A stretch of DNA of 64,000 nucleotides from an uncultured archaeon (lineage in GTDB: Archaea > Thermoproteota > Bathyarchaeia > Bathyarchaeales > Bathycorpusculaceae), in contig CAWALK010000022.1 in assembly GCA_963782915.1 (NCBI GenBank), positions 96,001 through 160,000 of the forward strand. The letters are read 5' to 3'. Positions 31 through 60,247 of this stretch are shown here, in pieces. The notes beneath the pieces are model-generated. The model was not told the DNA's origin. It saw only the letters and a list, made by a program, of their open reading frames with translations, and searched no databases. The stretch's first letter is position 1. Each line of letters starts with the position of its first letter. The position numbers were made by a program, and so were the translations under genes.

Positions 31-263
31 CTATAAATAAGGGAGGGGTCTAGTTGAGAGCAGCAAAAGCTCTTCTTATAGGGGCAGGGGATCAGTGGCA
101 AAGCACCAGCTTTTTACATGTTATTTCTGGCGTTGCTTGCTGTTTGCTCCACAACCAGCCTGCAACATAAACCAGGCTCTAAGCGCCAAAAGCAATTGGC
201 AGCACAATTGATTGGTTGTTGTAGTGTATAGGGGGTTTCTGCCAACAACAACTGTAGAAAAAC
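31..263 (+). repeat. Dispersed intergenic repeat element, most complete copy (modules A, A', C, B)
   Basis: A=CTATAAATAAGGGAGGGG 31-48; A'=TTATAGGGGCAGGGG 76-90; C=CTTGCTGTTTGCTCCACAACCAGCCTGCAAC 136-166; B hairpin GGTTGTTGTAGTGTATAGGGGGTTTCTGCCAACAACAACTGTAGAAAAAC 214-263. Homologous modules recur at 7 other loci. Confidence 0.85.
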
Positions 264-300
264 ACACTAAGTAAATAAAAATTAAAAGAAAAATGCTGTT

Positions 301-549
301 TTAAGACAGCCATTTCAAGGGTATATCTTGGAAAGTTCCATCCGGCAGTGTTCTGCGGATAGTGATTGGCAAAACGTTTGCATCGAGTTCTGAAACAGCT
401 ATATCGATTGGGTTGGTGTTGTCTGCTGCGTCAACCAAGATTGGTGCTCCCATCGAGATTTGCAATGCACGTGCGCCGACGATTCTTGCTTTCTCGAAAC
501 GAGTGATTTTTGGTGGTCCTACCACAATTTTTTCGTGTACTTGTTGCAT
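301..549 (-). CDS. rpoK: DNA-directed RNA polymerase subunit Rpo6/K
   Basis: [21 protein letters not shown] and LPITIRR motifs; starts 1 nt after the thermosome stop. Confidence 0.96.
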
Positions 550-550
550 T

Positions 551-2215
551 CTACATCATTCCCGGCATTCCACCCATTCCGCCCGGCATTCCTCCTCCCG
601 GTGGCATTGGAGGAGACTTCATTTTAGCGGTTGAGATGACATCGTCGATTTTGAGTATCATGGATGCTGCTTCATACGCGGATTTTATGATTTGCTTTTT
701 AACTGCGAGCGGCTCGTAAACGTTGATTTTTGTCATGTCCTCGGTTGTGCCTGCGAAGACGTTGATGCCTGCCCATGTTTCGCCTTTCTCGTGGCGTGCA
801 CGCAGTTGAGTCAATAGATCAACAGGATCCAACCCCGCGTTTTCTGCGAGGGTGGTTGCGATGGTTTCCAGGGCTTCTGCGAAGATGCGCACTGCAAACT
901 GTTCACGGCCTGAGAGGGTTTGAGCGTACTTTTTGAGTGCGTTAGCCATTTCAAGTTCAGGTGCGGCTCCGCCTGCGACAACGAATGGTTCCTCAAGGAG
1001 GTCGCGTATGACGCAGAGTGCGTCATGGATGCTGCGTTCGGCTTCGGCTGTTAAGCGTTGGTTGCCGCCTCTGATTAGGAGTGTGACTGATTTGGGGTTT
1101 TTGCAGCCTTCGATGTAAGTCATTTTGTCGTCGCCGGTTTTGCGTTCCTCAACCACTGCAGCTTCGCCGAGGTCCGAGGCGGTTAGGGCGTCGATGTTGC
1201 TGATGATTTTGGCGCCTGTGGCTCGGGCGAGTTTTTCCATGTCAGATTTTTTAGCTCTGCGTATGGCAACTACGCCTTTGCGGGCCATGAAGTGTTGGGC
1301 CATGTCGTCGATGCCTTTTTGGCATATGATGACGTTGGCGCCTGAAGCGAGAACTTTGTCAACCATGCTTTTGAGCATGACTTCTTCCTGTTTGAGGAAG
1401 GCTTCGATTTGAGCGGGGTTTTCTATGTTGATTTTTGCGTCGAGTTCCGGTTTCTCGTTTTCCATAGATGCGTCCAGAAGCGCGATTTTTGCTTTTTCGA
1501 CACGTTTTGGCATGCCAGAGTGGACGATTTCTTTGTCCAGGACGATGCCGTTGATTAAGCTGGTATCAGCGAGGGATAAGCCGGTTTTCTTTTCGACTTT
1601 TACGTCGTCTACGTCTGCTTTCATGCTGCCGTCAGCTTGTTTTTCTGCGACTGATAGCATGGCTTTGACGGTTATGTCGGCGAGGTATTCTTTGTATTCG
1701 GCGACGATTTTGCTGCCCATGGCGGTGACGGCGACTTTTTTGAGGTAATCTGATGATGTTAAATCAACTGGGATGGCGATTTTGTCGAGGACTTCGAGGG
1801 CTTTTTGTGATGCGAGTTTGAAGCCTTCGATGATGATGGTTGGGTGAATGTTTTTATCGATTAATCCCTCAGCGAGGTTAAGCAATTCGCCTGCAACGAT
1901 GACGCTGCTGGTGGTGCCGTCGCCTGCTTCTTTATCTTGGGTTTTGGCGACTTCAACCATCATTTTGGCGGCCGGATGCTGAATATCCATCTCGTCGAGA
2001 ATCGTTCTTCCGTCGTTAGTTATTGTGACATCGCCGAAGTTATCGACCAGCATTTTATCCATGCCTTTAGGACCTAATGCGCTTCGGACGCTTTCAGCTA
2101 CAACTTTAGCAGCTGTAATGTTACCATGTTGGGCTTCTCTACCACGACTACGTTTTGAACCTTCCCTTAAAACCATAATCGGTATTCCGCCTGCTTGTGT
2201 TGGTGCTGCTGACAA
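551..2215 (-). CDS. ths: Thermosome subunit (group II chaperonin)
   Basis: [19 protein letters not shown] motifs; GGM-rich C-terminal tail; TTG start with upstream GGAGG. Confidence 0.97.
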
Positions 2216-2261
2216 ACCTTATAAACCTCCATAATGCGAACAACAACATGATAGTCCTACA

Positions 2262-2275: not shown

Positions 2276-2395
2276 TAGTGGTGGCATGTTGACGGAAGCT
2301 ACTGTTTAGCGGTTTTTGTATCGTTTAGCTGTTTTTGGGGTGGCTGTGTGTTTGTTTGAAGGCAGTGGCGCATGATGGTTTGGGGTTTGTTTGCG

Positions 2396-2713
2396 TTTTT
2401 TTTCTCTATCCCCCTTATTTATAGGCTCAATAAATACGGAAAAAAGCAAAGAGGATGCGGGCGTTTGTCGGTTTGGAACTGTGGAGGTTGTGCGCTTGTT
2501 GGCTGGGGTGCCGGGTGGCTAGGCGGTTGTGATAGAAGACTGTTTGCTTTTTTGTTTGAGGTTCTGTTGCTTTGCCAAGACCGCCCTATCCCCTATAAAA
2601 AGGTCAAAAAACTGAGATCTACCTACCTCAGAAGTACCTACCCCTCCCTTATTTAAAGGATAAATAGGGTATCTCTGTTGCTTTGCCGAGCTACCCCCCT
2701 CCCCTATATATAG
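2396..2713 (-). repeat. Cluster of four motif-A copies of the dispersed repeat
   Basis: CTCTATCCCCCTTATTTATAGGC 2404-2426, CCCTATCCCCTATAAA ~2584, ACCCCTCCCTTATTTAAA ~2640, CCCCCTCCCCTATATATAG ~2695; 2396-2430 is identical to 60043-60077. Confidence 0.8.
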
Positions 2714-2908
2714 ACTGAATTAGTGAATAACTTGGCAAACAATGACAGCGTAATGAGGTCGGGCACTGGCATGGCCCATTCGAACTATTCGCCCGTAGCA
2801 CACGGGGAACCTCCGGTTGCCTTTAAAGAATTTTCTCAAACAAAAAACACATCAAAAAAGGCATACAACAAACCGCACGAATGAAAAAATCGAAAAGCAA
2901 AACGGTGG

Positions 2909-3119
2909 CTAATTGATCTGCGAAGAGGCAGGTTCACTTGCTGACTGCTGAACCGGCGGCATCCAAACCTGCTCTTTTTTCTCTACAATCAATGTCAACT
3001 TTGTTTCAGTAGAACAACTCAGGATTCGTTGGCTATCTCTTGGCGGATGTTCAAGCCTGCCCTATAGAATATGGCGGCTGCACTACAGAGTACTTCTTGC
3101 TTTTTGGGTCCTCATACAT
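2909..3119 (-). pseudogene. TrpY-like ACT-domain fragment (frameshifted paralog of 6251..6754)
   Basis: With three single-base indel corrections it reads MYEDPKKQEVLCSAAAIFYRAGLNIRQEIANDPELSTETKLTLIVEKK, aligning to VLFKAGLGIRQAIVDDPELSPEPKCTLIVDRK. Confidence 0.6.
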
Positions 3120-3213
3120 ACGAGTAATTGAAACAATCTTTTATAAGATAAATTAACTTACCAATAATTTGGCAAAAAACATTTTTTGCTAAAATTTTAA
3201 GGAGAATAAAAAC

Positions 3214-6058
3214 TTGAACCTTTCTCATAAACGAACGTTCGCTCTTTTGATCATAGCAATCTTGGCGACTTCAATGTCAACTATAGTTTTCATAGAAGCA
3301 GCAAGCGCTCATACACCGCCATGGCAAATCCAACTCTTCGCTAACATTAACGTTGCACCTAACCCTGCAGGCGTAGGTCAATCCGTTACAGTTAACTTCT
3401 GGCTAAATGCACCTCCAATGACCGCTAACGGCCCATACGGTGACAGATTCGGACCATTCACCGTAAACGTCATAAAACCAGACGGAACCAACGAAACATT
3501 AGGGCCATTTATCTCTGATGCTACCGGCGGCACAGCCACACGCTACACACCAACAGCGGTAGGCGAATACAAGTTCCAGATGATATTCCCCGGACAAAAA
3601 CTAACCGGATTCACAAACAACCCATCAGCCGCTTCGGGCATAGCTAGCATCTCAAACCCAACTTACGTCAACGATACCCTCCTGCCCGCGGTTAGCCCCG
3701 TAGTAACGCTCACAGTCCAACAGGAAGCAGTACCGATGCTTCCCACAACCCCACTGCCAACCGATTACTGGCAAACCCCAATAAACGCAATGAACGTTGA
3801 CCAATGGTACCAAATCGGCGGACCCTACCTCAGCCTTTACACAAGCTACGGACCAGGCAAGGGCGGCTCCAACTATAACACCACGACCAACTTTAACCCA
3901 TACAGCTTCGCACCACTTTCATCGCACATAATATGGACAAGACCCGCAGCACCCGGAGGAGTCATCGGCGGAGACGCCGGCGGAACAACCACCTATGGCA
4001 ACTACTATTCAACCTCACAGTACGAACGCAAATACCAACCAATAGTTATGAACGGAATAATGTACTACACCCAATTCCCCGGAGCCTCAACAAACCCACT
4101 ATCAACCATCGCAGTTGACCTATACACAGGAGAAACCTTGTGGGTTAACGATGCAAACAACTGGGGAGGCGGAAGCCCTAACCAGAACATGCTAGTAGGA
4201 AACGGCACCTCAGTTACACCTCTCGCATGCGGACAAGTACTCGACTACGTGTCACCCAACCAATACGGCGGCTTAGCATATCTGTGGACAACAGGCACAC
4301 CAAGTTGGCTCACCAACAACCCATCCTACCCCATACGCCCCGGAACAACAACACTCAACATGTTTGACGCCATGACCGGCAAATACATCCTAAGCATAGT
4401 AAACGGCACAGGCTTCAGCTACGGAAACACAGTCGATGCAAGTGGCAACTTGATAAACTACTACACTAACACCACAGTGGGCACACAAACAATCTACGGT
4501 GCAATCCAACCAATCACCGGACCAACACCCACCAAAGTCACAAACACCGCCGGCAACTCACTGGTCGAAGTATGGAATTCGACACAATGCATAATGCTCG
4601 GCGCCGGCTGGGCAACTGCATCAGCTTCAGGCTGGTTCTGGAGACCACCACAAGGCGCAGTTATCCCATTCGAATACGGAATCCAATCCGCATGGCAACT
4701 ACCAGGCACCATTCCAGTGGGCGCATTTGCAAACAACGCCACATACCCCAACACTTGGACAGTATACGGCGTTAACAGCGGCACAGCACTACTCTATTCA
4801 GCCGCCAACCAGGGATTAACAAACTACTTCACAACAGGATACACAGTCTTCGCAGGCTACGACGTAACCGGCACAAGCACCACCGTAAACAGCACATACA
4901 ATCCCCCATTATTCGTACAGAACCAAACATTCACGCCCTTCGCCGCCGTCAACTTAGATAACTACGGCAACATCGGCAACGGAGTATTCACAACAGTAAT
5001 CAAAGAAACCGGACAAGTACAAGCCTTCGACGTACGCACAGGCAAACAAGTTTGGTCAACATTCCTAGCAGGAGACAACAACGCCTCAATCAACCCCTAC
5101 GACACATTGGGAGGCATCAAAGGAAACATCTACGGAAAAGACTTCCTACTATTCGGCTTCGGCGGAGACGTATGGTCACTGGACATGACAACCGGCAAAC
5201 AAAACTGGTACACTAACACCACAAAACTCCACGGCGAAGCAGGCAGCGACACCCCATACGGCATCTGGCCAATTTGGGTACAAACAGGCATCGGCGGAGG
5301 AGGAGGAATAATGTGGCTTGAAGAAGGACACGAATACTCACCACCCCTATTCAGAGGAGCAAAACTATTAGCCGTCAACACCACAGACGGATCACTTGTT
5401 TGGAGCATAAATTCATTTGACGTAGACGCAAACCCAGCATTAGCCTACGGTATCATGACAATCCTAAACGCCTACGATAACCAAATTTACGCTTATGGCC
5501 GAGGCCCCAGCGCCATCACAGCCTCTGCACCGCAAGTGGGAGCTACAACAGCTACACAAATCACCATCACCGGCACTATAATGGATATTTCTGCAGGAGC
5601 AAAACAGGGAGCAGTCGCAGCAAACTACCCCAATGGATTACCATGCGTCTCTGACGATAGCATGAGCAGCTTTATGGAAGCCGTCTACATGCAGCAACCA
5701 GTCCCCCACAACGCAACCGGAGTACCCATCACCCTGAGCGTAATTGACCCCAACGGCAACTTTAGAACAATCGGCGCAACAACCAGCGACGGAACCGGAA
5801 CTATATTCCTTCCATTGGACACCCGACATTTCAGGCGAATACATAGCAGTTGCTACATTTTCAGGAACTAACGCATACTACGGTTCAACAGCCCAAGCCC
5901 ACTTCTATGCTGCCGGCGCAACAACCGCATCGCCGACACCGACATCAGGCTCCAATGTTGCAACAACAACAGACCTGATGATCTACATTACAGCTGCGGC
6001 AATCGCCATAATCATCGCAATCGCTATTGTCGGAGTACTCATACTTAGAAGACACTAA
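3214..6058 (+). CDS. Large secreted PQQ-like beta-propeller repeat surface protein with C-terminal membrane anchor (frameshift ~5810)
   Basis: Signal peptide; AVDLYTGETLW/AFDVRTGKQVW/AVNTTDGSLVW propeller repeats; many NxT sequons; Thr-rich linker, TM helix and RRH tail in the second frame. Confidence 0.85.
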
Positions 6059-6250
6059 AGTTACAGTCAAACACAAACCAATCTTCCCCTCTTTTTTGTT
6101 CTAAACGAAATTAATAAGTTGTTTTTTATTTAGTTATTGCCGCTGTACCCTCCTGTTTCAACTTCTTCCGGCAGGGTACGCAGATAGTTTTCTTCGCTAA
6201 CCTGAAAACGCGGATATTCTGACTCAGTTACTCAGAAGAAATCGGCAGGT

Positions 6251-16897: not shown

Positions 16898-16935
16898 GCA
16901 ATATACCGTTTAAGGTAAAAGTCGGGGCGGTTGCT

Positions 16936-43017: not shown

Positions 43018-43030
43018 TTACAATTTCTCC

Positions 43031-45938: not shown

Positions 45939-46334
45939 TTATTGCGCTGCTTGCTCTGGCTTCGCCGCTGGCGCTGCCGCTTGAGCGGGTCTTTCAACAA
46001 TTTTCATGTTGATTTGAGCAATTTCGTCAGTGATAATGTCGCCGCGTACGGTTTTGCGTCTGCGTTCACCCTTTTTATGGGGTTTGAAACCTGCTCCACC
46101 GCTGAGAACAACTGCTCGGCGTACACCACCGTGAACATTTGACCTCATTGGGACGCCGTCTTTGTCAGATCCGCCTAATAATTGCACTTTGTGTGCTGGT
46201 AAATCGACTACTGCGCCGTCTAGTGTTTCGCCCAGTTTTCTTCCGATAAAGGGGCTTGCGCGTGCTTCTTCAAGCTCGACTACTTTGGATGTTCCCGCTT
46301 GTGGGTCGGAAACTATGACCTTAAATTTTGCCAT
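45939..46334 (-). CDS. rps6e: 30S ribosomal protein eS6
   Basis: GGSDKDGVPM, GERRRKTVRG. Confidence 0.95.
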   Translation of the reverse strand: MAKFKVIVSDPQAGTSKVVELEEARASPFIGRKLGETLDGAVVDLPAHKVQLLGGSDKDGVPMRSNVHGGVRRAVVLSGGAGFKPHKKGERRRKTVRGDIITDEIAQINMKIVERPAQAAAPAAKPEQAAQ

Positions 46335-46644
46335 TGATGAATATCTCCAGCGCATATGAAGTTGAAAATCTCTCTATTAAGGATTTAGCCCAAAAAGGAT
46401 TTTAATCATCTTTTTGAGGTTTTACGAATCGCTTGATGAATATAGTGATTAAAGCAAATCTGCCCTTAATAAGTAAACCCCCATATACGCTGCAATAGCC
46501 AAACGTTTTACCGCTAAACTGCATCAATTTCACATAAAATAGCTTACTTATGTAATGAAGAAAGCTACAGTTAGCTATTTTAGAGAAAATGCTCACTTTC
46601 TGAGGGATAAGGTTTTAATTTTACCTCTAAGTCGTTTTGTTCGC

Positions 46645-47920: not shown

Positions 47921-47940
47921 GCGAGCGTTTTGCCGCTCGT
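47921..47940. terminator. GC hairpin between convergent MFS and fae-hps
   Basis: GCGAGCG-TTTTGC-CGCTCGT next to a long A/T tract. Confidence 0.45.
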
Positions 47941-47948
47941 AGTTTGGT

Positions 47949-49388: not shown

Positions 49389-49592
49389 GTATTAAACCTC
49401 AAGGCTGTTTGTATTTCATGTTCTATATAAAAATGTCGGAGTAACTAGGGTAGATTCTGGAATATGCCTGTTGCTTTAGCGGTTAATTGTCGTTTCCCAT
49501 TTGTTTCTTGGAGGCGCGGTGTCTTGGGTGCTTTTCTGTAAATCTTTATATCCCCACAACTGCATTGAATGCTAATTCACCGAGGAACCTAA

Positions 49593-49814
49593 ATGTCTTG
49601 GACTGACTGGTCACTACTGGCTGTTTTCATTTCCGGTTTTCTGCTTTTCCTATACGGCGCCAACACTTACAACTCAGTTGTCGGTTACAGTGGCATTTAC
49701 CTCTTCATCGGTTCCATCGCAGCATACATCATAATTTACCTTTACAAAGAACTTAAAAAGAGAGATAACTGTGAGGTTCCAGCCCCATCTCCAGTTCAGC
49801 CTCAAAATCCGTAG
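49593..49814 (+). CDS. Small 2-TM membrane protein
   Basis: GAGG upstream, TTTATA box ~49546, two hydrophobic helices. Confidence 0.7.
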   Translation: MSWTDWSLLAVFISGFLLFLYGANTYNSVVGYSGIYLFIGSIAAYIIIYLYKELKKRDNCEVPAPSPVQPQNP

Positions 49815-51324
49815 ATGCGGCTGTACTTCTGGTTTAGGTACTGCAGAAAGGGTGTTGAATCCAGATTTGTTCCTGTTGCATGTTTGATTAGTTCTTCTGG
49901 GTCATAGAGGTCGCCTTTGCTGTGGATGTTTTCTTTGAGCCAAAGGTTGACTTCTCCAAGTTCGCCGTTTGCGACTTGGCTGCGCCAGTTTGGCAAGGTT
50001 TTAGTTATGGCTGACAGAATTTGTCCATCGTAAATGTTGCCTAATGCATAGCTTGGGAAGTAACCGTAGAGTCCGCTTGCCCAATGGGTATCCTGCATTA
50101 CCCCTTCTGAGTCATTTTGAATTTCCACGCCGAGGTAATCAGAGTATTTCTGGTTCCATGCTTGGGGGAGTTCGTCGATTTTGATTTTGCCGGCGAATAA
50201 GTCTCGTTCCAACTCGAAGCGTATGATAATGTGTATGCTGTAGGTGACTTCGTCTGCTTCGATGCGGATTTTTGAGCGTTCAATTTTATTTATGGTTTGT
50301 ATGAAAGAGGTTAGGTCGAGTTTTGAGAGGCTTGGCGCCGCTTGTTTTACTTTGGGTAAAAAGTTTGCCCAGAATTCGTTGGAGCGGCCGATTATGTTTT
50401 CGTAGAAGCGGGATTGGGATTCGTGGATGCCGAAGCTGCATGGGCTGCCTACTGGTTGATACTGCCATTCTGACTTGAGGTTTTGTTCATAGATGGCGTG
50501 TCCAGATTCATGGAGGACTGAGAAGATTGAGCTTGCAAAGTTGTTTGGGTGGTAATGTGTGGTTATGCGGACGTCGTCGTAGTAGCCTGTGGTGAAGGGA
50601 TGTTCGGTTTCGTCTACTCTTCCCGCAGCATTGGGTGAGGCGGTGTCGTAGCCGAGTGTTTGGGTGATGAGTTGGGTGATTTTGCGTTGTTCCTCCACTG
50701 GCACAGGTCCATCGAGGAGTTTGCGAGGTGGCTGGGTTTGGCTGTTTTCTATTTTGGCTATAAGTGGCTTGAGCCCTGCTAGCAGCCCATTGAAGGTTTT
50801 TGTGATGGTTTCAGCGGACATTTGGGGTTCAAAGCCGTCGATTAAGGCTTCGTAAGGTGTCTTGGTTTCTTTAACTTTCATGAGAATTTCGGCTGCTTCC
50901 ATGCTGAGGTTAAAGAGCTTCTGCAAATCCGATTTGTAGAGGTTGAAGTCTTTTTTTGCCTTGGCTTTTTTCCATGTGTTAACGGTTATGGCTTCCTGCA
51001 TCGCCAAGTCGCCAACAAGCTTCTCGGGCAACGCGGTTTGTTCTTTGTAGCTTTTGTTTATGAGGTAGATGTTGCGTTTCTCCACTTGCCCCATAGCTTG
51101 GATAGTTTGGGCTGGTTTGGATGGAGCCGAGGAGTTTGCCTATTTCTGGGTCTGTGCCCAATTTGTGGTGGATGCGGCTAAGCAGCGCCAGCTGTTCGCT
51201 GCGTTGCTCTACCGCTTTGGGCGGCATCATGGTTTCCATATCCCAGTGGATGATGCCTTGAGCGGTCCCAGAGCACGATGGTATCTTTGGATTTTGATAA
51301 AAGTTCCTTGTAAGCTGAATTCAT
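49802..51324 (-). CDS. Carboxypeptidase M32 (frameshifts ~51270, ~51090)
   Basis: WDMETMMP, HPF, DVRITT, HESGH, HESQS, IRIEADE, QDTHW, GYFPSYALG. Confidence 0.93.
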
Positions 51325-51554
51325 TGTTAGTTGTCAATGGGTGATTCTTCCTATGGTTTTCAATGTTGGGGGTCTTTATTTACTGTTAGGTATTCAGGTT
51401 CTGTTTAGCGCTTGCAAAAACATTGACCCTAAATAAGCTAAACCATTGATAGCATCAAGCGTTAACTTTATAGTTATACTAAGAAGTTAGTCTTGTTTGC
51501 ACAAGTTTTTATCTTACAGTAAAGTGCCGTTTAATAGAGGAATAAGTGTTTTAA

Positions 51555-52265
51555 ACACTCCCAGTTTAGAATCAAGCAAGACTTAGCTGGCAATAATAGG
51601 CTCAATATTACTAATAATCGGCGGTTTAGTTCCGGTAGTAGGGCATCGTAGGAATAATTCTGTTATCATTCTGTTTAGATGGCAATCAAAGGATTCTCTA
51701 CATACTACCAAGACACCTCCGCATGCCGTATGGGACGCAATGTTTACGGCATCGCAATAATCGCTACATAATTCGCTGGCTATTGCAGGCTCAGTAGCAA
51801 CCAATGTCGTTAGCAACGTGGCAACTGGTTAGCCATCGAGCCATAATCGGCTTCGGAGTTGTCATTTTCATCGCAGCTCTTAGTCGTCGCGTTTCATATT
51901 CTATTTACTCATGCCTATCGACTACGCAAAATTCCTCAGACCTTTCAGCAGACAGATCTGGCGAACAAAGCTTCCAGAACCGCAGGAACTTTGCTTTGTG
52001 GGGCGCAATACTGACAATAGTTTTCGTAGGCTTAATATTGATATTCATCGCTTGGATAATCGCGACAATCGGCGTTCTTCTCAATGAGAACCACCAGGGC
52101 AACAGCTATCAGCATACAACCTTATGGCTAGCACTCCACCAACACCAACCGCAGGTGTCCCACCAGATAAGCGGCGAACAAGGTACTGCCCCAACTGCGG
52201 CTCAACCCGTAGACGCCACCGCCACCTTCTGCCCACACTGCGGAAAACAGCTACCGCCAGCCTAA
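51555..52265 (+). pseudogene. DUF996-like membrane protein with C-terminal Zn ribbon, heavily frameshifted
   Basis: Fragments GSILLIIGGLVPVVG, SGEQSF...LWGAILTIVFVGLILIFIAWI, YCPNCG/FCPHCGK in shifting frames; may be sequencing error. Confidence 0.55.
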
Positions 52266-52354
52266 ACCTTCCTTTTTTTTTTTGTTGCTGTCTCTTGGCA
52301 ATCACACAGCTTTATGAATGTAGCAAACGGGCTTTATTTTGAAGTGTAAACCTT

Positions 52355-52543
52355 ATGCAAAAAACACCAGTTTCTTCAACCCATTCAGCTTTACCTAAAG
52401 CACCCCCTGTTCCAGAAGAGCCACTTGAAAATATGCCCAAAAGTGAGCTTGTCTGTGAAATATGCGGAAAAACTTTCAAATCCCATACCCAACTCGACAG
52501 GCATAAAACAACAGAACATGAAGTGCCTGAACAAAGAGATTAA
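52355..52543 (+). CDS. Small C2H2-type zinc-finger protein
   Basis: CEICGKTFKSHTQLDRHKTTEH. Confidence 0.8.
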   Translation: MQKTPVSSTHSALPKAPPVPEEPLENMPKSELVCEICGKTFKSHTQLDRHKTTEHEVPEQRD

Positions 52544-52555
52544 GGTTAGTTGAAG

Positions 52556-52630
52556 TGCTCCGGCCGGGATTTGGACCCGGGTCGCCGACTCGAAAGGCCG
52601 GCATACTTGACCGGACTATACTACCGGAGC
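52556..52630 (-). tRNA. tRNA-Glu(UUC)
   Basis: GCTCCGG/CCGGAGC acceptor stem, CCGGC-CTTTCGA-GTCGG anticodon arm, T arm CCGGG-TCCAAAT-CCCGG. Confidence 0.92.
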
Positions 52631-52700
52631 ACAATTGCTAGAAGCATCAAGCAAAATACAAACTCCTTCGAATAAACCTTACCCTTCCAGAAGCGCAGTT

Positions 52701-53222
52701 TTAGCTGTCAAGCTTCTTCTGTTTGCCCTTTTTGGGTGTAAAGAGAAAGCCAGTTATCTGCTCGACGAGTTTGGATTGGTTCTTATTGGATTCTTCGAGT
52801 GTTGCAACGCGTTTTTCTATGTCGTTTGAGATTATTTTGCCTTCGATGCGGTTGGCGCTGCGGAACATGAGCATCATCTTGAAAACTTCGTCGATTGCTT
52901 TTTCCTGTTCATCGGCGGAGGCTGGTTTGATGCCGGAGACGACTGAGAGCAAGTCAACGTAGTGTTCTTTGATTTTTAGTTCCGCATTCACTGAAGGATC
53001 AGTTGGAAATGCGATGCTAAGCGGCGTTTTTTTGGCTAATTCAGCGGCTGTTGGGAAGCGGATGACTATGTCGCCACGTATCCATGAAGATACGAATTCG
53101 TTGACGAATTTGTGCACGTCTTCTTTGGAGTAGATTAGTGAGGGTTCGTCTTGTGTTTCAGGCTTACGTTTGATTCTTACGCTGATAATTTTTTTGTCAT
53201 CTGCATTAGCTGAATTCGACAT
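52701..53222 (-). CDS. Hypothetical protein with C-terminal coiled coil
   Basis: 173-aa ORF, upstream GGAAGGGA, DIEKRVATLEE heptads. Confidence 0.7.
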   Translation of the reverse strand: MSNSANADDKKIISVRIKRKPETQDEPSLIYSKEDVHKFVNEFVSSWIRGDIVIRFPTAAELAKKTPLSIAFPTDPSVNAELKIKEHYVDLLSVVSGIKPASADEQEKAIDEVFKMMLMFRSANRIEGKIISNDIEKRVATLEESNKNQSKLVEQITGFLFTPKKGKQKKLDS

Positions 53223-53304
53223 TTTGTTCCCTTCCCACGCACTCTTCTGTTCTATTTATTCTCCTTAGCAATGACTAGTATATAAGAAACTGCATGCTGT
53301 GAGA

Positions 53305-54594
53305 CTAAAAAGAGATTTTTGCGGATGATGGAATCTGGCCGAGTACTTTTGATGTGGCTTTTTCGACTTTGGCGCGGTCTGTCTGATCGGTGTATACGCG
53401 CAGGATATTCATGAAGCCTTTGAGGGTTTCAAAGATTTTTGAGCTCTCGCTTAATCGCTGAAGTTTCTTTTCCCCCGCGGGGCTTCGGATGAAAACTGGA
53501 ATCTCCGTTGACTCCATCAACACAGCATGATGATAGGGTACTGATGGAACAGTTGGTACATCAATTATAACTGCCTCTATCCCGACGCCTGCTTCTTTGG
53601 CGATTTCACCCCGAATTTGATTGCGATAGGATTCCTGCCCAAACAAATTCGATATCATATCATCTTTTTGGTAGAAGGTGCGTTCGTAGGCGCATTTGAG
53701 CATTCGCCGATTTTCCAAGTTATTGATGATTTTATTTGAGGCTTCGCATTTTTTGAGTGCCGCCCAGACAGTGTAATCGTCGAGCGCCAAATATTCTTCG
53801 GGGGTTTTGAATGCGGTTAAGCCGAGTTCCTCGTTGGCTTTATCCATGGCCGATGCGAGCATGATTTGTGCGGCTCGTCCGACACGGTGGAAATAGATGC
53901 TCTTGAATGATTCGATGCGGGCGATTACGAAGGCTTCAAGCGCGGACAGTGCGCCCAGTTCAACTGCTAAGTTTTCGCCTAAAAGATCAAGGGCGTGTAT
54001 GAGACGGTAAACGTCGATGAAGCCGTATTCGGCGCCTGTATGGTAAGTGTCTCGGACGATGAAGTCCTGTTTATCAACGTCTACTGCGCTGCTAATGATT
54101 TGGTCGAGAAATGCGCGGTCTTTTTTATGCAGCTTCCCAACTGCTAGCCCAGCTACTTCTTGGGGGTTGTAGCCCATTTTGGATAGTTTGTCGGCGACTT
54201 CGCTTTTTTCGATAAGCCACGAAGTGATGTCCTCATGAGTTTTCCCTAAGTCTTTTATGAGTAGGTGCTCGAAGACGTGTGAGAATGGGCCATGCCCACA
54301 GTCGTGGAGCAGAGCGGCGATGCGGCACATGTCCACTTCTTCCCCGCTTACGACGCGAGAAATGTTTGGGTTCACTAGAACTTGTCCTGAGAGAAACATT
54401 ACGCCTAAGCTGTGTTCGAAGCGGGTGTGGTTGGCGCCTGGATAAACGTATTCGGAGCCAGCTAGTTGGCGCAGTCTGCGTTCTCGTTGCATGGGGTAAG
54501 TGTCGATTATGGTTTTTTCTTCTTCCGTAATGTACACGTAGCCGTGTACGGGATCTTTGATTTCTCCCCAGTAAGCTTTAGCCACAAGCGTCAC
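53305..54594 (-). CDS. HD-domain phosphohydrolase (SAMHD1/dNTPase-like)
   Basis: DPVHG, HTRFEHSLG, LLHDCGHGPFSH, DVDKQDF.RD, IYFH. Confidence 0.92.
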   Translation of the reverse strand: MTLVAKAYWGEIKDPVHGYVYITEEEKTIIDTYPMQRERRLRQLAGSEYVYPGANHTRFEHSLGVMFLSGQVLVNPNISRVVSGEEVDMCRIAALLHDCGHGPFSHVFEHLLIKDLGKTHEDITSWLIEKSEVADKLSKMGYNPQEVAGLAVGKLHKKDRAFLDQIISSAVDVDKQDFIVRDTYHTGAEYGFIDVYRLIHALDLLGENLAVELGALSALEAFVIARIESFKSIYFHRVGRAAQIMLASAMDKANEELGLTAFKTPEEYLALDDYTVWAALKKCEASNKIINNLENRRMLKCAYERTFYQKDDMISNLFGQESYRNQIRGEIAKEAGVGIEAVIIDVPTVPSVPYHHAVLMESTEIPVFIRSPAGEKKLQRLSESSKIFETLKGFMNILRVYTDQTDRAKVEKATSKVLGQIPSSAKISF

Positions 54595-54664
54595 CTCAGT
54601 TGGTAGGTTATTATTTATGTATCTCCCTATAATGTGTAACGCTAAGCATCAGGGTGAAGCAAAT

Positions 54665-55273
54665 ATGGGTAAAAAGGGCATTTTCCTGGTTATCGAGGGT
54701 TTAGATGGGAGCGGAAAAACCACTCAGGCAACGCTTTTAGCTGAGAAATTCTTTCGGGCATACAACGTTTTGCTTACTGCGGAGCCCAGCAGAGGCAAAA
54801 TCGGCTCGTTTATCCGTGAAAGCTGCCTCTATGAGCAGGAACGTTTGCCCACTGAAGCTGAAGCGCTGCTTTTTGCCGCTGACCGCATTGAGCATATGCA
54901 AACTGAACTCAAACCAGCCTTAGACGAGGGCAGACTGGTTATCTGCGACCGCTACATTTACTCGTCATTGGCTTATCAGGGCAGCGCAGGCTTAAGTTTA
55001 GACTGGATAAAAACCATCAACGCCCGAGCTTTGCAGCCAGACATATGCATCTTTATCGATGTGCCGCCTGAGAAGGTGATTGAGCGACTGCAACGCAAAA
55101 AGTCTGTAATGGAGACGCTTGAAACCCAGCAGAAAGTGCGCGAAGTCTACATGAAATACGTCGAGAAAGGCGAGTTGGTTCGGGTTGATGGCGATAAGGA
55201 GAAAGAGCAGGTTGCCGAGGACCTCTACAAAACCGTTTCTGGCTTGATTGAAGCAGCCCAAAAATTCGTCTAA
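54665..55273 (+). CDS. tmk: Thymidylate kinase
   Basis: IEGLDGSGKTT, LFAADR, CDRYIYSSLAYQG. Confidence 0.95.
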   Translation: MGKKGIFLVIEGLDGSGKTTQATLLAEKFFRAYNVLLTAEPSRGKIGSFIRESCLYEQERLPTEAEALLFAADRIEHMQTELKPALDEGRLVICDRYIYSSLAYQGSAGLSLDWIKTINARALQPDICIFIDVPPEKVIERLQRKKSVMETLETQQKVREVYMKYVEKGELVRVDGDKEKEQVAEDLYKTVSGLIEAAQKFV

Positions 55274-55297
55274 GCAGCCCAAGTTGTTCTTCTTTTT

Positions 55298-55400
55298 TTA
55301 TGGGGGCAGGGGGTCAATCACAACGCAACAAACCGTTTCTATGATACTTACGGTTTAACTTGCGGTTTGCTACGCAACCAGCCCACAACACAAGCCCAGG
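55298..55400 (+). repeat. Dispersed repeat copy (A', C)
   Basis: TTATGGGGGCAGGGGG 55298-55313 and CTTGCGGTTTGCTACGCAACCAGCCCACAAC from 55359; colinear with 76-170. Confidence 0.8.
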
Positions 55401-55489
55401 CATAAGAAAGCAGTCGTTGGTTGTTTGAACAAGTTATGACGCGCATTAAGTAATGTCCCTGAATATGGCAGGTTAGCTCAGGTTGTTTA

Positions 55490-55948
55490 ATGTTGAATAC
55501 AAAGGGATTAACAATAATCGCCGTGTTGCTCGTGGCGTCTGCGGTTGGTACTATACTTTTGGCAGGTTACGTTAACTCAACTGACCCAACTGCACATGAA
55601 CAGGCACCCGTATTGTTTATCAAAGATCTAAGCTTGATAAATAACACTGAAAGCCTCAACGGCTCCTTTGCACTAGTAAGCGCAGATGGCCGTGCTATAG
55701 AAGTAAACGAATTCCGCATTAACCGCATTACTCTAGACAAAGTTTCAGGCTTAACTGTATACGTTAATGGGACATCGATTAACTATTTGGCACCCTCACT
55801 CTTAGAGCTCAAACCAGGCGATACTATGGATGTAAACCTGATAATCCCCAATGAGAACAACTCTGACCTTTTGAGCGCACTAAAGTCTAATCATTTTGAA
55901 ATACAGGTATGCACACCGCAGGCTCTATTCTGGGGAGAACTCAAATAG
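55490..55948 (+). CDS. Hypothetical exported/membrane-anchored protein
   Basis: N-terminal KG followed by a hydrophobic helix (possible class III signal peptide), beta-rich body, NxT/S sequons. Confidence 0.65.
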   Translation: MLNTKGLTIIAVLLVASAVGTILLAGYVNSTDPTAHEQAPVLFIKDLSLINNTESLNGSFALVSADGRAIEVNEFRINRITLDKVSGLTVYVNGTSINYLAPSLLELKPGDTMDVNLIIPNENNSDLLSALKSNHFEIQVCTPQALFWGELK

Positions 55949-56347
55949 GAGTTACTTGTTTTAGCGGTTTTTTCCTGCAAAAAATTAATACATCTTTACT
56001 CGAAAAGCATTTTCAGAACAACCATAAACATCAAAACAGGCCTTCACAGCAGAAGCAACTTGTAGAAATCGCCTCAATACCCTGCAACCCAAACCAGACG
56101 CTGACACAAAAATGCAGCTGCAGCAAGACTCACAGGAAGAAGATGAGTGAGGGAGGTCATGCCATTATCTACTACTAGAAAAACCAAACCCACACTTTTC
56201 CAACACCGACCAAACCAACTAATCATTTTCCGGCTGAAAACAACTGCATAACAAAACCACCATAGAACCCAACAAACCCCTAGCCGAACGAACAAGAAAT
56301 ATTGACACCCATACAATCCACCAAGCACCCAACTAGGCAATTGTGGA

Positions 56348-56479
56348 GCCTATAAATAAGGGAGGGGGTAGGTTGTGTAGAGCAAAAGACCTCTGTTTTC
56401 ATTTGATTAAGCTAATTAAACAAGACCATTAGGTGGTTGTGTATAGGAACTTTTTGGCGACAACAACTAGAGTAAAAAC
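56348..56479 (+). repeat. Dispersed repeat copy (A, degenerate B)
   Basis: GCCTATAAATAAGGGAGGGGGTA 56348-56370; GGTGGTTGTGTATAGGAACTTTTTGGCGACAACAACTAGAGTAAAAAC 56432-56479. Confidence 0.82.
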
Positions 56480-57988: not shown

Positions 57989-58770
57989 TGTGGACTTTCT
58001 CCGTACATTGTGGATAGTTTTTCGATTGCACCGTTGGTCCAGACTGTTAATCGGCCTGGGTGTGTTCCGGGTGCTAGCATTTCGGTGTTTAAGTTGGTTA
58101 CTGTGGTTATTTCGACGCCGGGTAGGTTGCTGGCTGCGTTTACGAGGGTTTTTCCGTCTACGACGACGATGAGTGGTCCGACGGCTTGCTTCATTTTTCT
58201 GCCTCTGTGTTTGCCTTTGCCTGCGCGTACGTTGCGGCTGTCGCGTACTCTTGTGAATTCTGCGTCGAAGCCCAACTTTGAGAATGCTTCTTCGACTTCT
58301 TTTGCTTTGGTTAAGCTTTCGAATGCGTTGTCAACTACTAAGGGTAAGCCTAAGACGTCGGCGATTCTGTGTCCGCGTCCTGCAACAAAAGTTTTTTCGG
58401 CTGTTGCTGCGATAGCGGAAGTTAATGCCAATTTGGCTTCTTTTTTAGGTATGTTTTTGACTATGATTTTTTCGGCGCGTGGTGGATGTGGTTGTCTGCC
58501 TTTGACGGTGCTTGGAGCGAATGCTGCTCTGCCGGCGCCTTTCATGCGGGGAACTCTTGCTTGGGCGCTGCCAGTTCCGCGTGATTCTGCGGTGGTTTTC
58601 TTTCCAGCCATTGGGTCTCGGCCTTGTGGCTGGATACTGTTGGATTGTATTGCTAAGACTGCACGTTTGATTACGTCGGGTCTTATGGGTGTATCAAAGA
58701 CAGCCGGAAGATTGATTTTTCCGGTTGCTTTGCCCTGTAAGTCAAAGATTTCTGCTGTTTTCTGTGCCAT
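57985..58770 (-). CDS. rpl4: 50S ribosomal protein uL4
   Basis: IRPDVIKRA, ARVPR, RAGKGK, LAPGTHPGRL. Confidence 0.97.
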   Translation of the reverse strand: MAQKTAEIFDLQGKATGKINLPAVFDTPIRPDVIKRAVLAIQSNSIQPQGRDPMAGKKTTAESRGTGSAQARVPRMKGAGRAAFAPSTVKGRQPHPPRAEKIIVKNIPKKEAKLALTSAIAATAEKTFVAGRGHRIADVLGLPLVVDNAFESLTKAKEVEEAFSKLGFDAEFTRVRDSRNVRAGKGKHRGRKMKQAVGPLIVVVDGKTLVNAASNLPGVEITTVTNLNTEMLAPGTHPGRLTVWTNGAIEKLSTMYGESPQ

Positions 58771-58781
58771 TTTTATTCAAC

Positions 58782-59795
58782 CTATTTTCCCTGAGGGGAC
58801 TCCAGTGAGATATATGTTACTTGTGGTGGTGCTTCCGGCGTTTCTGTTGGTGGACGTGCTGGAACTCGCAGGTGTATCTGGCGTTTTTCTGTGCCGGGTA
58901 TGCTGCCTGAGATGAGCATGTATGGTCCGTTGACTTCGCCGTATCGGACGTATCCGCCTTTTACGGTGACTTCTTTGCCGTCTTTTCCGATTTTCATGAT
59001 GCGTTTGTTAAATTCGATTCTTTGGTGGTAACCTGTTTGGCCTGCTCTTGGGATGCTGTACATGAGGTGGTGGGGGTTCCATGGACCGAGGGTGGCGATG
59101 CCGCGTTTGGTTTTTCTGCCTTTGTGTTGCAGTTTGGTTACGTGCCAACGTTTAACTGGGCCTTGGAAGCCTTTGCCGACTGTGATGCCGGCGATGTCGA
59201 TGAATTGTCCGTCTTTGAAGACTTCTTCGGGTGTTACTGTTTTGCCGAGGAGTTGTTTGGCGTATTCGAATTGTTGTGGGATGGTTCCGCCGCCGATTTG
59301 GATTTCGCAGGTTTCGGGTTTTTTCTTTGAGAGGCTGGTTAATGTTGGTTGGGTGGCGATGATAACGCTGACGATTGCTGCTTGTTCTAGGCTTGCTTGA
59401 ACTTTTTCTAGCATAGCCTCCGTGTTGAAGGTCTCCGGCAAAACCAGTAAACGGTCAAGGCTGGCTGGTGGTTCTTTCATCCAGGCTTCCGTTAGGTTTT
59501 GTAGACCGTACGGTGTTTTAGTGTATGTTCTTATGCCACATATTATGATAGGTGGCGTTTCGAGGATAGTTGCGGCTCGCATGACTTCTTTACCGAAGTT
59601 TGGTGAACGTTTCCGGTCTTCGATTGTAAAGATGTAGGTCATGCCTGCTTTGTAGGAAGTGAATCCTAAAAGTTTAGGTGAATCTGACTCTATCTTTGGC
59701 CAATATCGAATTCGTGCAGTTGGAGATTTAGCACGATGCCTAGGTAAATAAGCTAGTGAACCATGTTTTGGAGCATGAGTTTTACGATGTCCCAT
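58782..59795 (-). CDS. rpl3: 50S ribosomal protein uL3
   Basis: YKAGMT, GKGFQGPVKRW, RAGQTGYHQR. Confidence 0.97.
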   Translation of the reverse strand: MGHRKTHAPKHGSLAYLPRHRAKSPTARIRYWPKIESDSPKLLGFTSYKAGMTYIFTIEDRKRSPNFGKEVMRAATILETPPIIICGIRTYTKTPYGLQNLTEAWMKEPPASLDRLLVLPETFNTEAMLEKVQASLEQAAIVSVIIATQPTLTSLSKKKPETCEIQIGGGTIPQQFEYAKQLLGKTVTPEEVFKDGQFIDIAGITVGKGFQGPVKRWHVTKLQHKGRKTKRGIATLGPWNPHHLMYSIPRAGQTGYHQRIEFNKRIMKIGKDGKEVTVKGGYVRYGEVNGPYMLISGSIPGTEKRQIHLRVPARPPTETPEAPPQVTYISLESPQGK

Positions 59796-60042
59796 AGTAC
59801 TTCCGCTTCGCGCCTTTAGCAAATAGTGAAAGGGGTTATAAATGTTGCCATTTAAAACGCAAAAGTAACGTATAGCTGCATAGAAAACAAATTAGCAGCT
59901 ATCACATGCACCTATATATGTAAAGCGTTTGTAGTGGTAAGCTATCGTTTGCAACACTATACCATAGCAGAGGTTGCTTATGATTATTTCGATACCAAAA
60001 CAAATGTAGCCTACGACAAGCAAAAAAACGAACAAAGATGTA

Positions 60043-60247
60043 TTTTTTTTCTCTATCCCCCTTATTTATAGGCTCAACAAGTGCTCAAATAGGAAAGAGA
60101 AGCACCAGCATTCATTGAAGACCACTGTCTGGTTGTAGGCGTTTGCTAGCTATGCAACGGGTTTTTCTAGGCAGTTGTGCCGAGCATCTATCAAACATTA
60201 AGCCGCCTCGATTTGTTGCTCTCAGGGACCTCCCCTCCCCTTATATG
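60043..60247 (-). repeat. Two motif-A copies of the dispersed repeat
   Basis: TTTTTTTTCTCTATCCCCCTTATTTATAGGCTCAA 60043-60077 (identical to 2396-2430) and CCCCTCCCCTTATATG 60232-60247. Confidence 0.82.

Follow-up and report, generated by a model that had tools for sequence, protein, structure and literature searches.

REP, BIME and REPIN sequences of Proteobacteria are built on a palindrome of 20-40 nt and are mobilised by RAYT. BOX, from Streptococcus pneumoniae, and ERIC are modular intergenic repeats that have no transposase of their own and may be co-transcribed with their neighbours. SINE-type retroposons have internal boxes, start at a defined 5' end and finish in a 3' tail that is A-rich and varies in length, their target duplications being variable or absent; archaeal promoters are not known to be internal. 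MITEs have been reviewed (PMC10969869) and surveyed (PMC11602168), and the insertion sequences IS1634 and IS1549 have been described as making, on insertion, long direct repeats of variable length, from 8 to 514 bp (PMC2266710).

The repeat analyzed here, the C-B element, was found in the 3.28-Mb genome of a soil archaeon of the Bathyarchaeia, where its behaviour is that of a small mobile repeat of a new kind. Like REP, BIME and REPIN sequences, it is high-copy, extragenic, non-coding, hairpin-bearing and present in both orientations, is sometimes arranged in tandem or in a mosaic with other short modules, and is tied to genome rearrangement. Unlike them, it is about 135 nt long, contains three conserved boxes, resides in an archaeal host and comes without a RAYT-type Y1 transposase in copy-rich genomes. 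It resembles BOX and ERIC by its few conserved boxes in fixed order, its at least ~100 intergenic copies, the lack of its own transposase and a possible co-transcription with adjacent genes, but shares no sequence relation with them, has a top strand that is strongly A+C-rich, is accompanied by a separate promoter-like module and does not extend beyond a part of a single archaeal family. As the original prediction supposed, no described element matches it: Rfam, one phage collection and one plasmid collection gave no match, nor did searches of the literature.

A search profile built from four copies of the window (the whole stretch of 64,000 nucleotides that was analyzed) and run on the 3.28-Mb genome gave 185 matches at E<1, of which 150 had E<1e-5 and 95 were near full length with E<1e-10. 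With best E-values of about 1e-38, the family cannot be attributed to chance, and it is thus as real as first proposed, with ~150 copies in the genome. The eight that lie within the window were scored by R1, a sequence-only covariance model, and comprise four full, two variant and two partial copies, the latter reduced to the front half and to the hairpin half, respectively (Table 1). The element consists of a 5' box (C box), a 47-nt A+C-rich spacer, a 10-bp hairpin (B) and an A-run tail; the C box and both hairpin arms are three related A/C-rich triplet-repeat stretches. Its core measures ~135 nt, or ~150-165 nt once the variable A+C-rich tail is included. The announced fixed spacing was borne out, since, among 94 distinct full copies, 69 have the left arm 64 nt from the C box and 81 have it at 63-65 nt; the shorter spacer of copy c was also correctly described. 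On the other hand, the "~190-bp element" of the original prediction proved to be a composite of two families of real repeats, the C-B core and the P module discussed below. Two of its eight loci, 2396-2713 and 60043-60247, hold P modules only, on the minus strand and without any R1 match, and copies e2 and g0 had been overlooked. The element is non-coding, with 126 of the 150 matches at E<1e-5 free of overlap with ORFs of at least 90 aa.

Table 1. C-B elements and P modules of the window, with the evidence on which each is placed
Feature	Position	Strand	Evidence
Two tandem P modules upstream of copy a	31-49, 76-90	+	sequence, regex family
Copy a, full C-B	130-264	+	R1 105.4 bits
Copy a, C box	134-166	+	
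Copy a, spacer (47 nt)	167-213	+	
Copy a, left arm	214-224	+	
Copy a, loop	225-243	+	
Copy a, right arm	244-253	+	
Copy a, A-run tail	254-264	+	
Cluster of four P modules without C-B core	2396-2449, 2563-2602, 2640-2665, 2674-2713	-	repeats D10, D19, I14, I21
Copy c, full C-B, spacer 19 nt shorter	16934-17053	-	R1 88 bits
Copy d, full C-B	32203-32337	+	R1 113.1 bits
Single 41-nt P module	32409-32449 (approximate)	+	pairwise alignment A6
Copy e2, variant C-B	39165-39294	-	R1 44.9 bits; inverted repeat I1
P module remainder + 16-nt insertion-sequence end	39338-39370 + 39370-39385	-	sequence
Copy e, full C-B, alternative loop type	39399-39535	-	R1 86.5 bits
Copy f, P-like module + C-B front half	~55293-55314 + 55354-55421	+	R1 20 bits, model positions 6-91
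Copy g0, variant C-B	56058-56186	+	R1 35 bits; inverted repeat I1
Copy g, P module + C-B hairpin half	56350-56368 + 56432-56478	+	R1 23.4 bits, model positions 90-139
Two P modules without C-B core	60043-60096, ~60220-60247	-	repeat D10, sequence

The P module, a TATA box plus a G-rich block of ~40 nt in all, forms a second repeat family linked to the first, with 223 regex matches genome-wide (~220 copies). Its canonical TATA box makes it promoter-like. Among the 128 C-B copies having a C box, 42 are preceded on the same strand by a P module within 250 nt, at 50-69 nt in 31 of these 42; opposite-strand P modules near C-B elements number only 3, and the position of the module is mostly upstream. 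The A' motif of the original prediction therefore does keep a fixed distance, but belongs to a separate module that stands beside part of the copies; about two thirds of them lack it. A run of at least 5 T occurs in 3 of 34 intervals between P module and C box. With a same-strand P module upstream and no terminator between, the P-headed third of the copies is probably transcribed, judging from sequence, as an A+C-rich RNA ending in the hairpin. P modules are also found away from C-B cores. The four-module cluster precedes the thermosome gene (551-2215, on the minus strand; Pfam Cpn60_TCP1), and a block spanning 2357-6244 is missing from the closest relative, G155; the single module that follows copy d is absent from the orthologous G155 site. 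The two last modules of the window precede the L3 ribosomal-protein operon, whose conserved promoter adjoins the gene, by ~250 nt. Among 13 aligned upstream regions of this operon, only those of the window and of the closest relative have a full P module at this position; L121 has a partial look-alike.

The clearest structural signal of the C-B element is its hairpin. Across copies, 89% of the cells of the stem are paired, and 26 cells are double-changed; shuffling yields 9.4 +/- 2.5 such cells, with 0 of 500 shuffles attaining 26. In the variant copy e2 as well, the arms have an altered sequence and have kept their complementarity. These compensatory changes are limited to the hairpin, and RNAalifold, applied to both strands, gave no further consensus structure; support for the structured RNA that had been suggested is thus limited to stem B, where the expected covariation was indeed observed.

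One could then assume that C-B is a multi-copy family of small-RNA genes, whose RNA would be a regulator or a sponge for an RNA-binding protein, a hypothesis that we regard as rather unlikely. In a first version, the top strand would be transcribed from the P promoter into an A+C-rich, largely unstructured RNA with the B hairpin at its end, in line with the canonical TATA box, the preferred distance of the P module and the rarity of T-runs before the C box. In a second version, a G+U-rich RNA would be transcribed on the bottom strand from the tail, which in reverse reads as a T-run plus a TATA-like box inside the unit, and the hairpin dyad over the start site would be an operator. Supporting this idea, the tail has an A-run of at least 5 nt in 97 of 111 copies, a trait kept across genera together with several boxes and the covarying hairpin, and one ordinary gene promoter of the source genome resembles the tail read backwards. 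However, no consensus structure extends past the hairpin on either strand, and no terminator is seen at the expected RNA ends: a T-run of at least 5 within 40 nt 3' of the tail is present in 9 of 111 copies, and on the bottom strand 17 of 111 have the corresponding run ahead of the C box. The lack of a P module in most copies also speaks against small-RNA genes, and the stem mismatches (7 G-U versus 3 A-C) are too few to name a transcribed strand. Selection on each copy, finally, fits poorly with the many congeners in which the copy number is 0, with truncated orthologues and with element conservation that does not surpass that of the flanks.

The distribution of the family bears directly on this last point. 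Of the 24 other species of the genus, 13 gave matches, from 1 to at least 77 each, and it was not found in the remaining 11, the copy number within this one genus ranging from 0 to more than 77. It was found in 0 of 16 genomes that represent the order's other families. Within the family, 100 genomes were sampled, and 5 of them, from three other genera, have weaker full-length relatives. As the original prediction called for, empty sites were sought at orthologous loci, and copies are indeed present or absent both between species and between strain-variant contigs. Five copies of the copy-rich genome G007 are at sites that are empty in the source genome, and four copies of the source genome are absent from G155. 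A 384-nt composite on contig C17 is absent from its strain variant C2, with flanks ~96% identical, and C14 has an extra tandem copy that C20 lacks. An outgroup polarised the inversion described below; at other sites, gain and loss are not always separable. Copies also decay: f and g are truncated in the window, and G007 has full copies at the same places. The hairpin of f is degenerate. Copy g lies beside the S19 gene, at its 3' end; in the orthologous place G007 has a full copy together with a P module, and G155 has none. Copy e2 is common to the window and G007. In four orthologous pairs with well-matched flanks, element identity does not exceed flank identity, so that such copies show no more conservation than their surroundings. 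The fixed spacing had been taken as a sign of selection; by itself it does not show this, since shared ancestry passes on spacing.

These data also weigh on the proposal of a host-serving DNA element, REP/BIME-like in function, in which a host protein would bind the boxes and the dyad, and the copies would act as transcription insulators or terminators between genes, or as nucleoid-organising sites. The intergenic location is consistent with it, as are a mild excess 3' of same-strand genes (91 versus 59), the bottom-strand T-run facing outward at the tail in the same 97 of 111 copies, and the triplet-repeat stretches of the C box and two arms, which could be protein sites; box conservation across genera would fit a host function as well. 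We nevertheless find such a role improbable: copy-rich genomes have no RAYT-type gene, orientation shows no association with GC skew, AT skew or gene-strand bias, the family was not found in 11 of 24 congeners, and copies decay at orthologous sites. In addition, the arms vary yet stay complementary, a better fit for a nucleic-acid hairpin than for a fixed protein half-site.

C-B copies mark the ends of synteny. In G007, 36 of 40 copies lack two-sided synteny to the source genome, and of 28 source-genome copies in regions homologous to G155 contig C9, 20 match on one side only. In the window, homology to G155 stops exactly at the right edge of copy a. Both ends of a 15.7-kb inversion relative to G155 (39588-55273) are inside clusters of oppositely oriented elements, with copy e in the left breakpoint and copy g0 in the right one; g0 and e2 form the inverted pair I1. 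The inversion may thus have been caused by recombination between copies. Copy c has an orthologous copy in G155 with a different spacer and loop type. Copy d lies just 3' of a histidine-kinase gene (30587-32170); at this site, the G155 copy belongs to another loop type, and the 2-kb kinase gene is missing from G155. We read such differences in loop type and spacer as replacement.

What could mobilise the element? Three enzyme families are absent from the copy-rich genomes searched: Y1 transposase of the RAYT/IS200 type and reverse transcriptase had 0 matches in the source genome and in G005, G007, G008, G014, G015 and G024, and DDE_Tnp_1 had none in G007, G014 and G015. The co-occurring RAYT/IS200 TnpA looked for on the strength of the original prediction is thus missing from seven copy-rich genomes including the source, no real TnpB was found, and no transposase gene is flanked by a C half and a B half as an autonomous parent would be. 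The REP/BIME label was consequently dropped, the unit not being a short palindrome either. Most copies lack terminal inverted repeats, and it holds for those of the window that no transposase is nearby and that neither terminal inverted repeats nor target duplications are obvious.

The source genome does contain a resident 1.13-kb insertion sequence that has 16-nt terminal inverted repeats, identical in sequence to 39370-39385, and encodes a weak DDE_Tnp_1 match (20.6 bits, cut-off 23). That C-B is an ordinary MITE, descended from this insertion sequence and moved by it, would be suggested by its left repeat immediately upstream of 13 of 150 C-B copies, its right repeat just downstream of 8 of 150, and a 240-bp unit (C23:146395-146634) in which a C-B core lies between both; duplications of the IS1634/IS1549 type could be claimed for it too. 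This origin is nonetheless very improbable. Only 2 of 150 copies are flanked by both repeats, whereas we estimate that, at the observed divergence, ~60% would retain them within three mismatches if ancestral, and the insertion sequence has no internal C-B sequence. Four inspected units bounded by these repeats (1.07-1.32 kb) each lie within the TATA box of some P module, and this explains most of the juxtapositions. Moreover, the new G007 insertions have no such repeats at their ends, and G007, G014 and G015 are copy-rich without DDE_Tnp_1. More generally, C-B is like the MITEs of the accounts cited above in being small, non-coding, non-autonomous, multi-copy and insertion-polymorphic between relatives, and unlike them in that most copies have neither terminal inverted repeats nor a fixed-length target duplication and no autonomous match was found.

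Target duplications give a mixed picture. Two new G007 insertions are flanked by duplications of 27 bp and ~85 bp, well above shuffled controls, but a clearly significant flanking repeat accompanies only 2 of 10 gain/loss events, and the 94 copies of the source genome show no excess over shuffled pairings. In the sources cited here, IS1634/IS1549 is the only described behaviour that resembles these two duplications; those are, however, autonomous elements of 1.5-2 kb with a DDE transposase, G007 has no DDE_Tnp_1, and 8 of the 10 events lack a clear duplication. A parallel can also be drawn with SINEs, whose defined 5' end, A-rich 3' tail of variable length, fixed-spacing boxes and variable or absent target duplications are all found in C-B. 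Unlike SINEs, C-B has no reverse transcriptase in copy-rich genomes and no excess of 5' truncation (23 hairpin-only versus 21 front-only partial matches).

Altogether, we give about even credence to C-B being a non-autonomous, recombination-prone mobile repeat that is mobilised in trans and is no member of the REP/BIME group. Of the three options first put forward (protein-bound DNA, structured RNA, element mobilised in trans), the last fits best, given presence and absence at orthologous sites and variable copy number; counting against a mobile element, no near-identical independent copies were found, the best pairs being ~90% identical, which gives no sign of recent activity in the source genome. 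C-B would be a selfish dispersed repeat of a Bathy-6-type lineage of Bathyarchaeia, of which a trans-acting activity would copy the ~135-165-bp unit into intergenic DNA. The conserved boxes and hairpin would be the cis sites required for copying, which would explain their near-invariance across copies and genera while subfamily spacers differ and copies decay. Once dispersed, the copies would become substrates for homologous recombination, and may overwrite one another through gene conversion; they are located at the breakpoints of inversions and indels.

A profile made from an alignment of four window copies, from the C box to the tail, was searched against the 3.28-Mb, 25-contig genome (93.5% complete) and gave 185 matches, of which 150 had E<1e-5 and 95 were near full length at E<1e-10. 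The repeat that they define, the C-B element, is a non-coding unit of ~135 nt composed of a 5' C box, a 47-nt A+C-rich spacer, a hairpin called B and an A-run tail. Many small contigs repeat parts of large contigs at 86-98% identity (e.g. C5 versus C22:179478-206767, C14 versus C20:394517-451695); the genome bin seems to hold two related strains, so that these copy counts are slightly inflated. The fixed spacing that had been claimed is borne out, the C box being separated from the left arm of the hairpin by 64 nt in 69 of 94 distinct full copies and by 63-65 nt in 81 of them. The proposed "modular ~190-bp unit" is aptly called modular, but it is a composite of two families rather than a single unit, namely the C-B element and a block that we call the P module (the A' motif of the original prediction). 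R1, a sequence-only covariance model from 24 copies, matches eight sites within the window: four full copies, two variant copies that had been overlooked, and two halves. At two of the loci first listed, 2396-2713 and 60043-60247, R1 and the sequence agree that the A' motif is present but the C-B core is absent.

Coordinates of the C-B copies in the window, of the resident insertion sequence and of the gene blocks absent from the closest relative, G155
Feature	Location	Strand	Remark
Full C-B copy a	window 130-264	+	R1
Full C-B copy c	window 16934-17053	-	R1
Full C-B copy d	window 32203-32337	+	R1
Full C-B copy e	window 39399-39535	-	R1
Variant C-B copy e2	window 39165-39294	-	R1
Variant C-B copy g0	window 56058-56186	+	R1
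Half C-B copy f	window 55354-55421	+	R1; front half
Half C-B copy g	window 56432-56478	+	R1; hairpin half
Resident insertion sequence (1.07-1.32 kb)	C23:82970-84102		weak DDE_Tnp_1 match, 16-nt TIRs
Resident insertion sequence	C15:305347-306480		as above
Resident insertion sequence	C22:78440-79514		as above
Resident insertion sequence	C18:122592-123914		as above
Block absent from G155	window 2357-6244		P cluster and 885-aa PQQ-repeat protein
Block absent from G155	window 27438-30066		HAMP protein and PAS histidine kinase
Block absent from G155	window 30447-32451		second PAS histidine kinase

The element is high-copy and extragenic, since 126 of the 150 matches at E<1e-5 fall outside ORFs of at least 90 aa, and the copies show only a slight preference for sites downstream of a co-oriented gene (91 versus 59). 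Protein coding was rejected: at most 35 of the 94 copies can be read through in any one frame, and the spacer indels are not multiples of three. A role as a polar chromosome motif of the KOPS or Chi type was rejected as well, as the orientation of the copies follows neither GC skew, AT skew nor gene-strand bias. When the whole window was compared with Rfam at gathering thresholds, two tRNAs were matched and nothing else; six copies with their flanks gave no Rfam match at E up to 1, and neither a phage collection nor a plasmid collection contained a match to the element.

Hairpin B, with a 10-bp stem and a loop of ~19 nt, accounts for no more than the final third of the unit. RNAalifold predicted almost no pairs on either strand of 94 copies, and no structure for 82 sequences from several genera. 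Covariation was tested on the ten pairs between the two box-B arms in the 82-sequence alignment, against 500 shuffles. The stem cells are paired in 89% of cases and 26 are double-changed, against 9.4 +/- 2.5 in the shuffles, none of which reached the observed value. The covariation score is 0.107 against 0.042, again reached by none of the 500 shuffles. This score calls for caution, since the arms are triplet repeats and a shift of the partner by three columns yields a similar value, 0.117. One stem pair is U-A in 61 sequences and A-U in 12; the stem is also kept with different arm sequences in the two variant copies of the window and in the copies of G085, a genome from another genus. When arms change but remain complementary, a nucleic-acid hairpin is a better fit than a fixed protein half-site. 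Among the mismatches of the stem, G-U is seen 7 times and A-C 3 times, too few cases for the RNA strand to be named from wobble pairs. A pairing of the C box with the left arm of the hairpin, judged by eye, was dropped since the G085 copies are unable to form it.

Model searches of 41 and 101 sampled genomes gave the distribution beyond the host. Of the 24 other species of the genus that were searched, 13 contain matches to R1, numbering from 1 to at least 77 scored ones per species; 16 genomes that represent other families of the order contain none. Among 100 further genomes of the family (70 genera), weaker full-length matches occur in five genomes belonging to three other genera, with 17 such matches in G085. 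The cross-genus alignment keeps the parts in one order, with conservation of the 5' box, two spacer blocks, a loop motif and the A-run tail, and nearly all bases of the top strand are A or C. The constant spacing had been read as a possible sign of selection on a protein-bound element; a protein-bound element serving the host appears to us very unlikely. The L3 protein of the window has its nearest relatives in MAGs of Bathyarchaeota/Bathyarchaeia, including Candidatus Bathycorpusculum at 84-86% identity.

The second family, the P module, is, judged from its sequence, a putative promoter of ~40 nt, in which a canonical TATA box leads straight into a G-rich block and then a short conserved leader. 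A regular expression finds 223 non-overlapping P sites in the genome, which have downstream of them a C-B element (55 sites), an ORF start within 150 nt (21) or something else (147). Seen from the other side, 42 of the 128 elements with a C box have a same-strand P module within 250 nt upstream, at 50-69 nt in 31 of these 42, and the opposite strand carries just 3 of the P sites near elements. Clustering by the DNA downstream of P puts 122 of the 223 modules in a single network, in which some arrays read P, A+C-rich body, P, C-B. Since a run of at least five T lies between P and the C box in only 3 of 34 intervals, a P-driven transcript would run into the C-B element, and from their position behind P modules many copies are probably transcribed. 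On this basis one could wonder whether the family consists of small-RNA genes. The covariation lies in the B stem only, the P module precedes 42 of 128 copies, and no terminator signal is seen on either strand where an element-sized RNA should end; we regard a small-RNA gene family as possible, though unlikely.

Other roles proposed for P were rejected. It is found upstream of none of the 41 tRNA genes, which excludes it as a stable-RNA promoter, and it is not the promoter of the L3 operon, where a conserved promoter adjoins the gene instead. Of 13 aligned L3 upstream regions, just two carry a full distal P, those of this genome and of its closest relative; locus L121 has a partial look-alike. 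Nor do P modules stand chiefly before co-oriented genes: 96 are on the strand opposite to the gene and face the 3' end of a convergent one, against 67 that share its strand and face the start of a co-oriented one. Two short blocks upstream of the L3 operon are near-invariant across the 13 Bathyarchaeia genomes (window 59823-60122; loci L119-L193, positions 1-300), one BRE/TATA-like beside the gene and the other of 18 nt, ~130 nt upstream. At locus L123 (a Bathyarchaeia MAG, positions 1-300), a full C-B element takes the place that P modules have in this genome, immediately upstream of the L3 operon and oriented like it. Elsewhere, G155 cleanly lacks, at the orthologous site, a single 41-nt P module of the window (~32409-32449) that is not flanked by a duplication, so that P modules may come and go by themselves.

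The presence or absence of C-B copies at orthologous sites shows that the element is polymorphic among relatives. In G007, whose genes are 72-82% identical to those of this genome, two copies occupy sites where the genes are adjacent here (window near 25690 and near 37750), and copies f, g and e2 are common to both genomes. Among 40 further G007 copies compared with 900-nt flanks, 36 had no two-sided synteny here, 3 stood opposite empty sites and 1 opposite a filled site. Differences also appear between strain-variant contigs, with a 384-nt composite on C17 that is absent on C2 and one extra tandem copy on C14 that is absent on C20. For G155, which is much closer (87-93% identical), we compared contig C9 (372 kb). 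Its 14 copies comprise 9 shared, 4 with a one-sided match, 1 unclear and none private to G155, and the 28 copies of this genome in the homologous regions comprise 20 with one-sided homology, 4 shared and 4 private; the two shared counts differ because the criteria were applied separately from each side. The orthologous copies c and d differ from those of G155 in loop type and spacer far beyond point mutation at that divergence, which points to their having been overwritten by other copies. In four orthologous pairs with well-matched flanks, the elements are 70-85% identical, equal to or below the identity of their flanks. The comparison of elements with neighbouring intergenic DNA covered about nine orthologous pairs. 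Copies f and g are truncated in the window and complete in G007. Between these two halves, whose model coordinates abut (3-91 and 90-135), lies a 152-aa ORF without Pfam match (window 55490-55948).

We then have to ask how such copies are made. Flanking direct repeats are no more frequent at the 94 copies of this genome than in shuffled pairings. Of ten gain/loss events, two have clear flanking duplications, of different length: 27 bp (score 17 versus a null of 8.3 +/- 1.5) and ~85 bp (score 25 versus 9.6 +/- 1.6). In a third event both junctions show a 14-16-bp match, which is not above the null, and the remaining seven have no flanking duplication. IS1634 and IS1549 are reported to make long, variable direct repeats (PMC2266710), and for the C-B element this is a resemblance only. 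Terminal inverted repeats are missing from most copies, and a repeat search of the window found none at the element ends. The 16-nt repeat of the resident insertion sequence stands beside 13 of 150 copies on the left and 8 of 150 on the right, and on both sides of only 2. Terminal repeats suggested by a motif in the downstream flank were rejected, this motif being the end of the same insertion sequence, which inserts into P modules. It lies inside the TATA box of a P module at all four TIR-bounded sites inspected, which suggests that it targets this motif; a solo end of it, joined to the remainder of a P module, lies between copies e2 and e (remnant at window 39370-39385).

Candidate mobilising enzymes were searched for as well. 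The Y1/RAYT transposase (PF01797) has no match in this genome or in G005, G007, G008, G014, G015 and G024, and the genomes that carry it have few or no C-B copies. Reverse transcriptase (PF00078) is absent from this genome and from every copy-rich genome; among the 41 genus genomes it occurs in 4, each of which either gave no element match or lay outside the element search. TnpB was not found in this genome, to which its search was confined, and a single weak PF07282 match is the zinc ribbon of an SPFH-domain protein (window 24334-25314). DDE_Tnp_1 was not found in G007, G014 and G015, G014 being a single-contig genome with 53 element matches. None of these four enzymes co-occurs with high copy number, and all were rejected as the mobiliser. 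An autonomous parent was rejected too, as in no case is a transposase gene flanked by a C half and a B half.

A parallel can be drawn with several known classes. A REP unit is a short (~20-40 nt) imperfect palindrome, and REPIN systems co-occur with a RAYT (Y1/IS200-like) gene. The C-B element shares the high copy number and extragenic position of the REP/BIME-like system that had been proposed, but not the rest: its unit is ~135 nt and not a short palindrome, and RAYT has no match in this genome or in the six other copy-rich genomes named above. Like MITEs, it is small, non-coding, multi-copy and insertion-polymorphic among relatives; unlike them, most of its copies have no TIRs matching an autonomous insertion sequence and it has no target-site duplication of fixed length, and that it would be an ordinary MITE of the resident insertion sequence seems to us highly improbable. 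It differs from IS200/IS605 derivatives (PATE-like elements, TnpB omega-RNA ends) in that this genome has no Y1 or TnpB and in having one hairpin, near the 3' end, instead of one at both ends, and from SINE-like retroposons in that the copy-rich genomes have no reverse transcriptase. The C-B element is not a member of REP/BIME, of the classical MITEs, of the IS200/IS605 derivatives or of any Rfam family, and in the literature we found no description of such repeats in Bathyarchaeia. The reading we favor, with confidence that is about even, is that of a non-autonomous, recombination-prone dispersed repeat, whose boxes and hairpin would be cis sites for a copying activity acting in trans.

The window segment 39588-55273 is inverted relative to G155, with copies e2 and e, both minus, at the left breakpoint and f, g0 and g, all plus, at the right one; e2 and g0 form an 80-nt inverted pair. 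The S19 end is on the side of the radical-SAM gene in both G155 and the more distant G007, so the arrangement of this genome is derived. G155 has one variant copy at one inversion junction and none at the other. The simplest cause is recombination between inverted copies, and an alternative would be a replicative insertion inverting the segment. In addition, copy a sits exactly where homology with G155 ends, and copy d is beside a 2-kb gene indel. Three gene-sized blocks of the window are absent from the otherwise collinear G155 (see table). Three 87-nt direct repeats, ~359 nt apart inside a beta-propeller (PQQ-like) gene (window 33793-34597), are ordinary internal protein repeats.

Bathyarchaeia are abundant, uncultured archaea of soils and sediments and, to our knowledge, their non-coding DNA is almost unstudied. 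The C-B family and the P module make up much of the large intergenic space of this genome, and many of the breaks in assembly and in synteny between close relatives are explained by them. They provide a concrete archaeal case of dispersed repeats at inversion ends, and a model such as R1 can flag C-B elements during annotation, which would keep them from being found anew as isolated oddities. One would also wonder what copies an element without terminal repeats, regular target duplication or a known mobilising enzyme. A bold and rather unlikely answer is that it spreads by a transposition route undescribed in archaea, in which copying would be primed from a nick or from the hairpin by a host or unrecognised enzyme instead of a transposase, RAYT or reverse transcriptase. 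The products would have a defined 5' end and an A-rich tail, and their target duplications would be either lacking or long and of varying length; C-B units and separately mobile 41-nt P promoter cassettes would then keep altering how genes are transcribed and ordered in these soil archaea. Should P modules act as promoters, gaining or losing them would offer a fast route to expression change.
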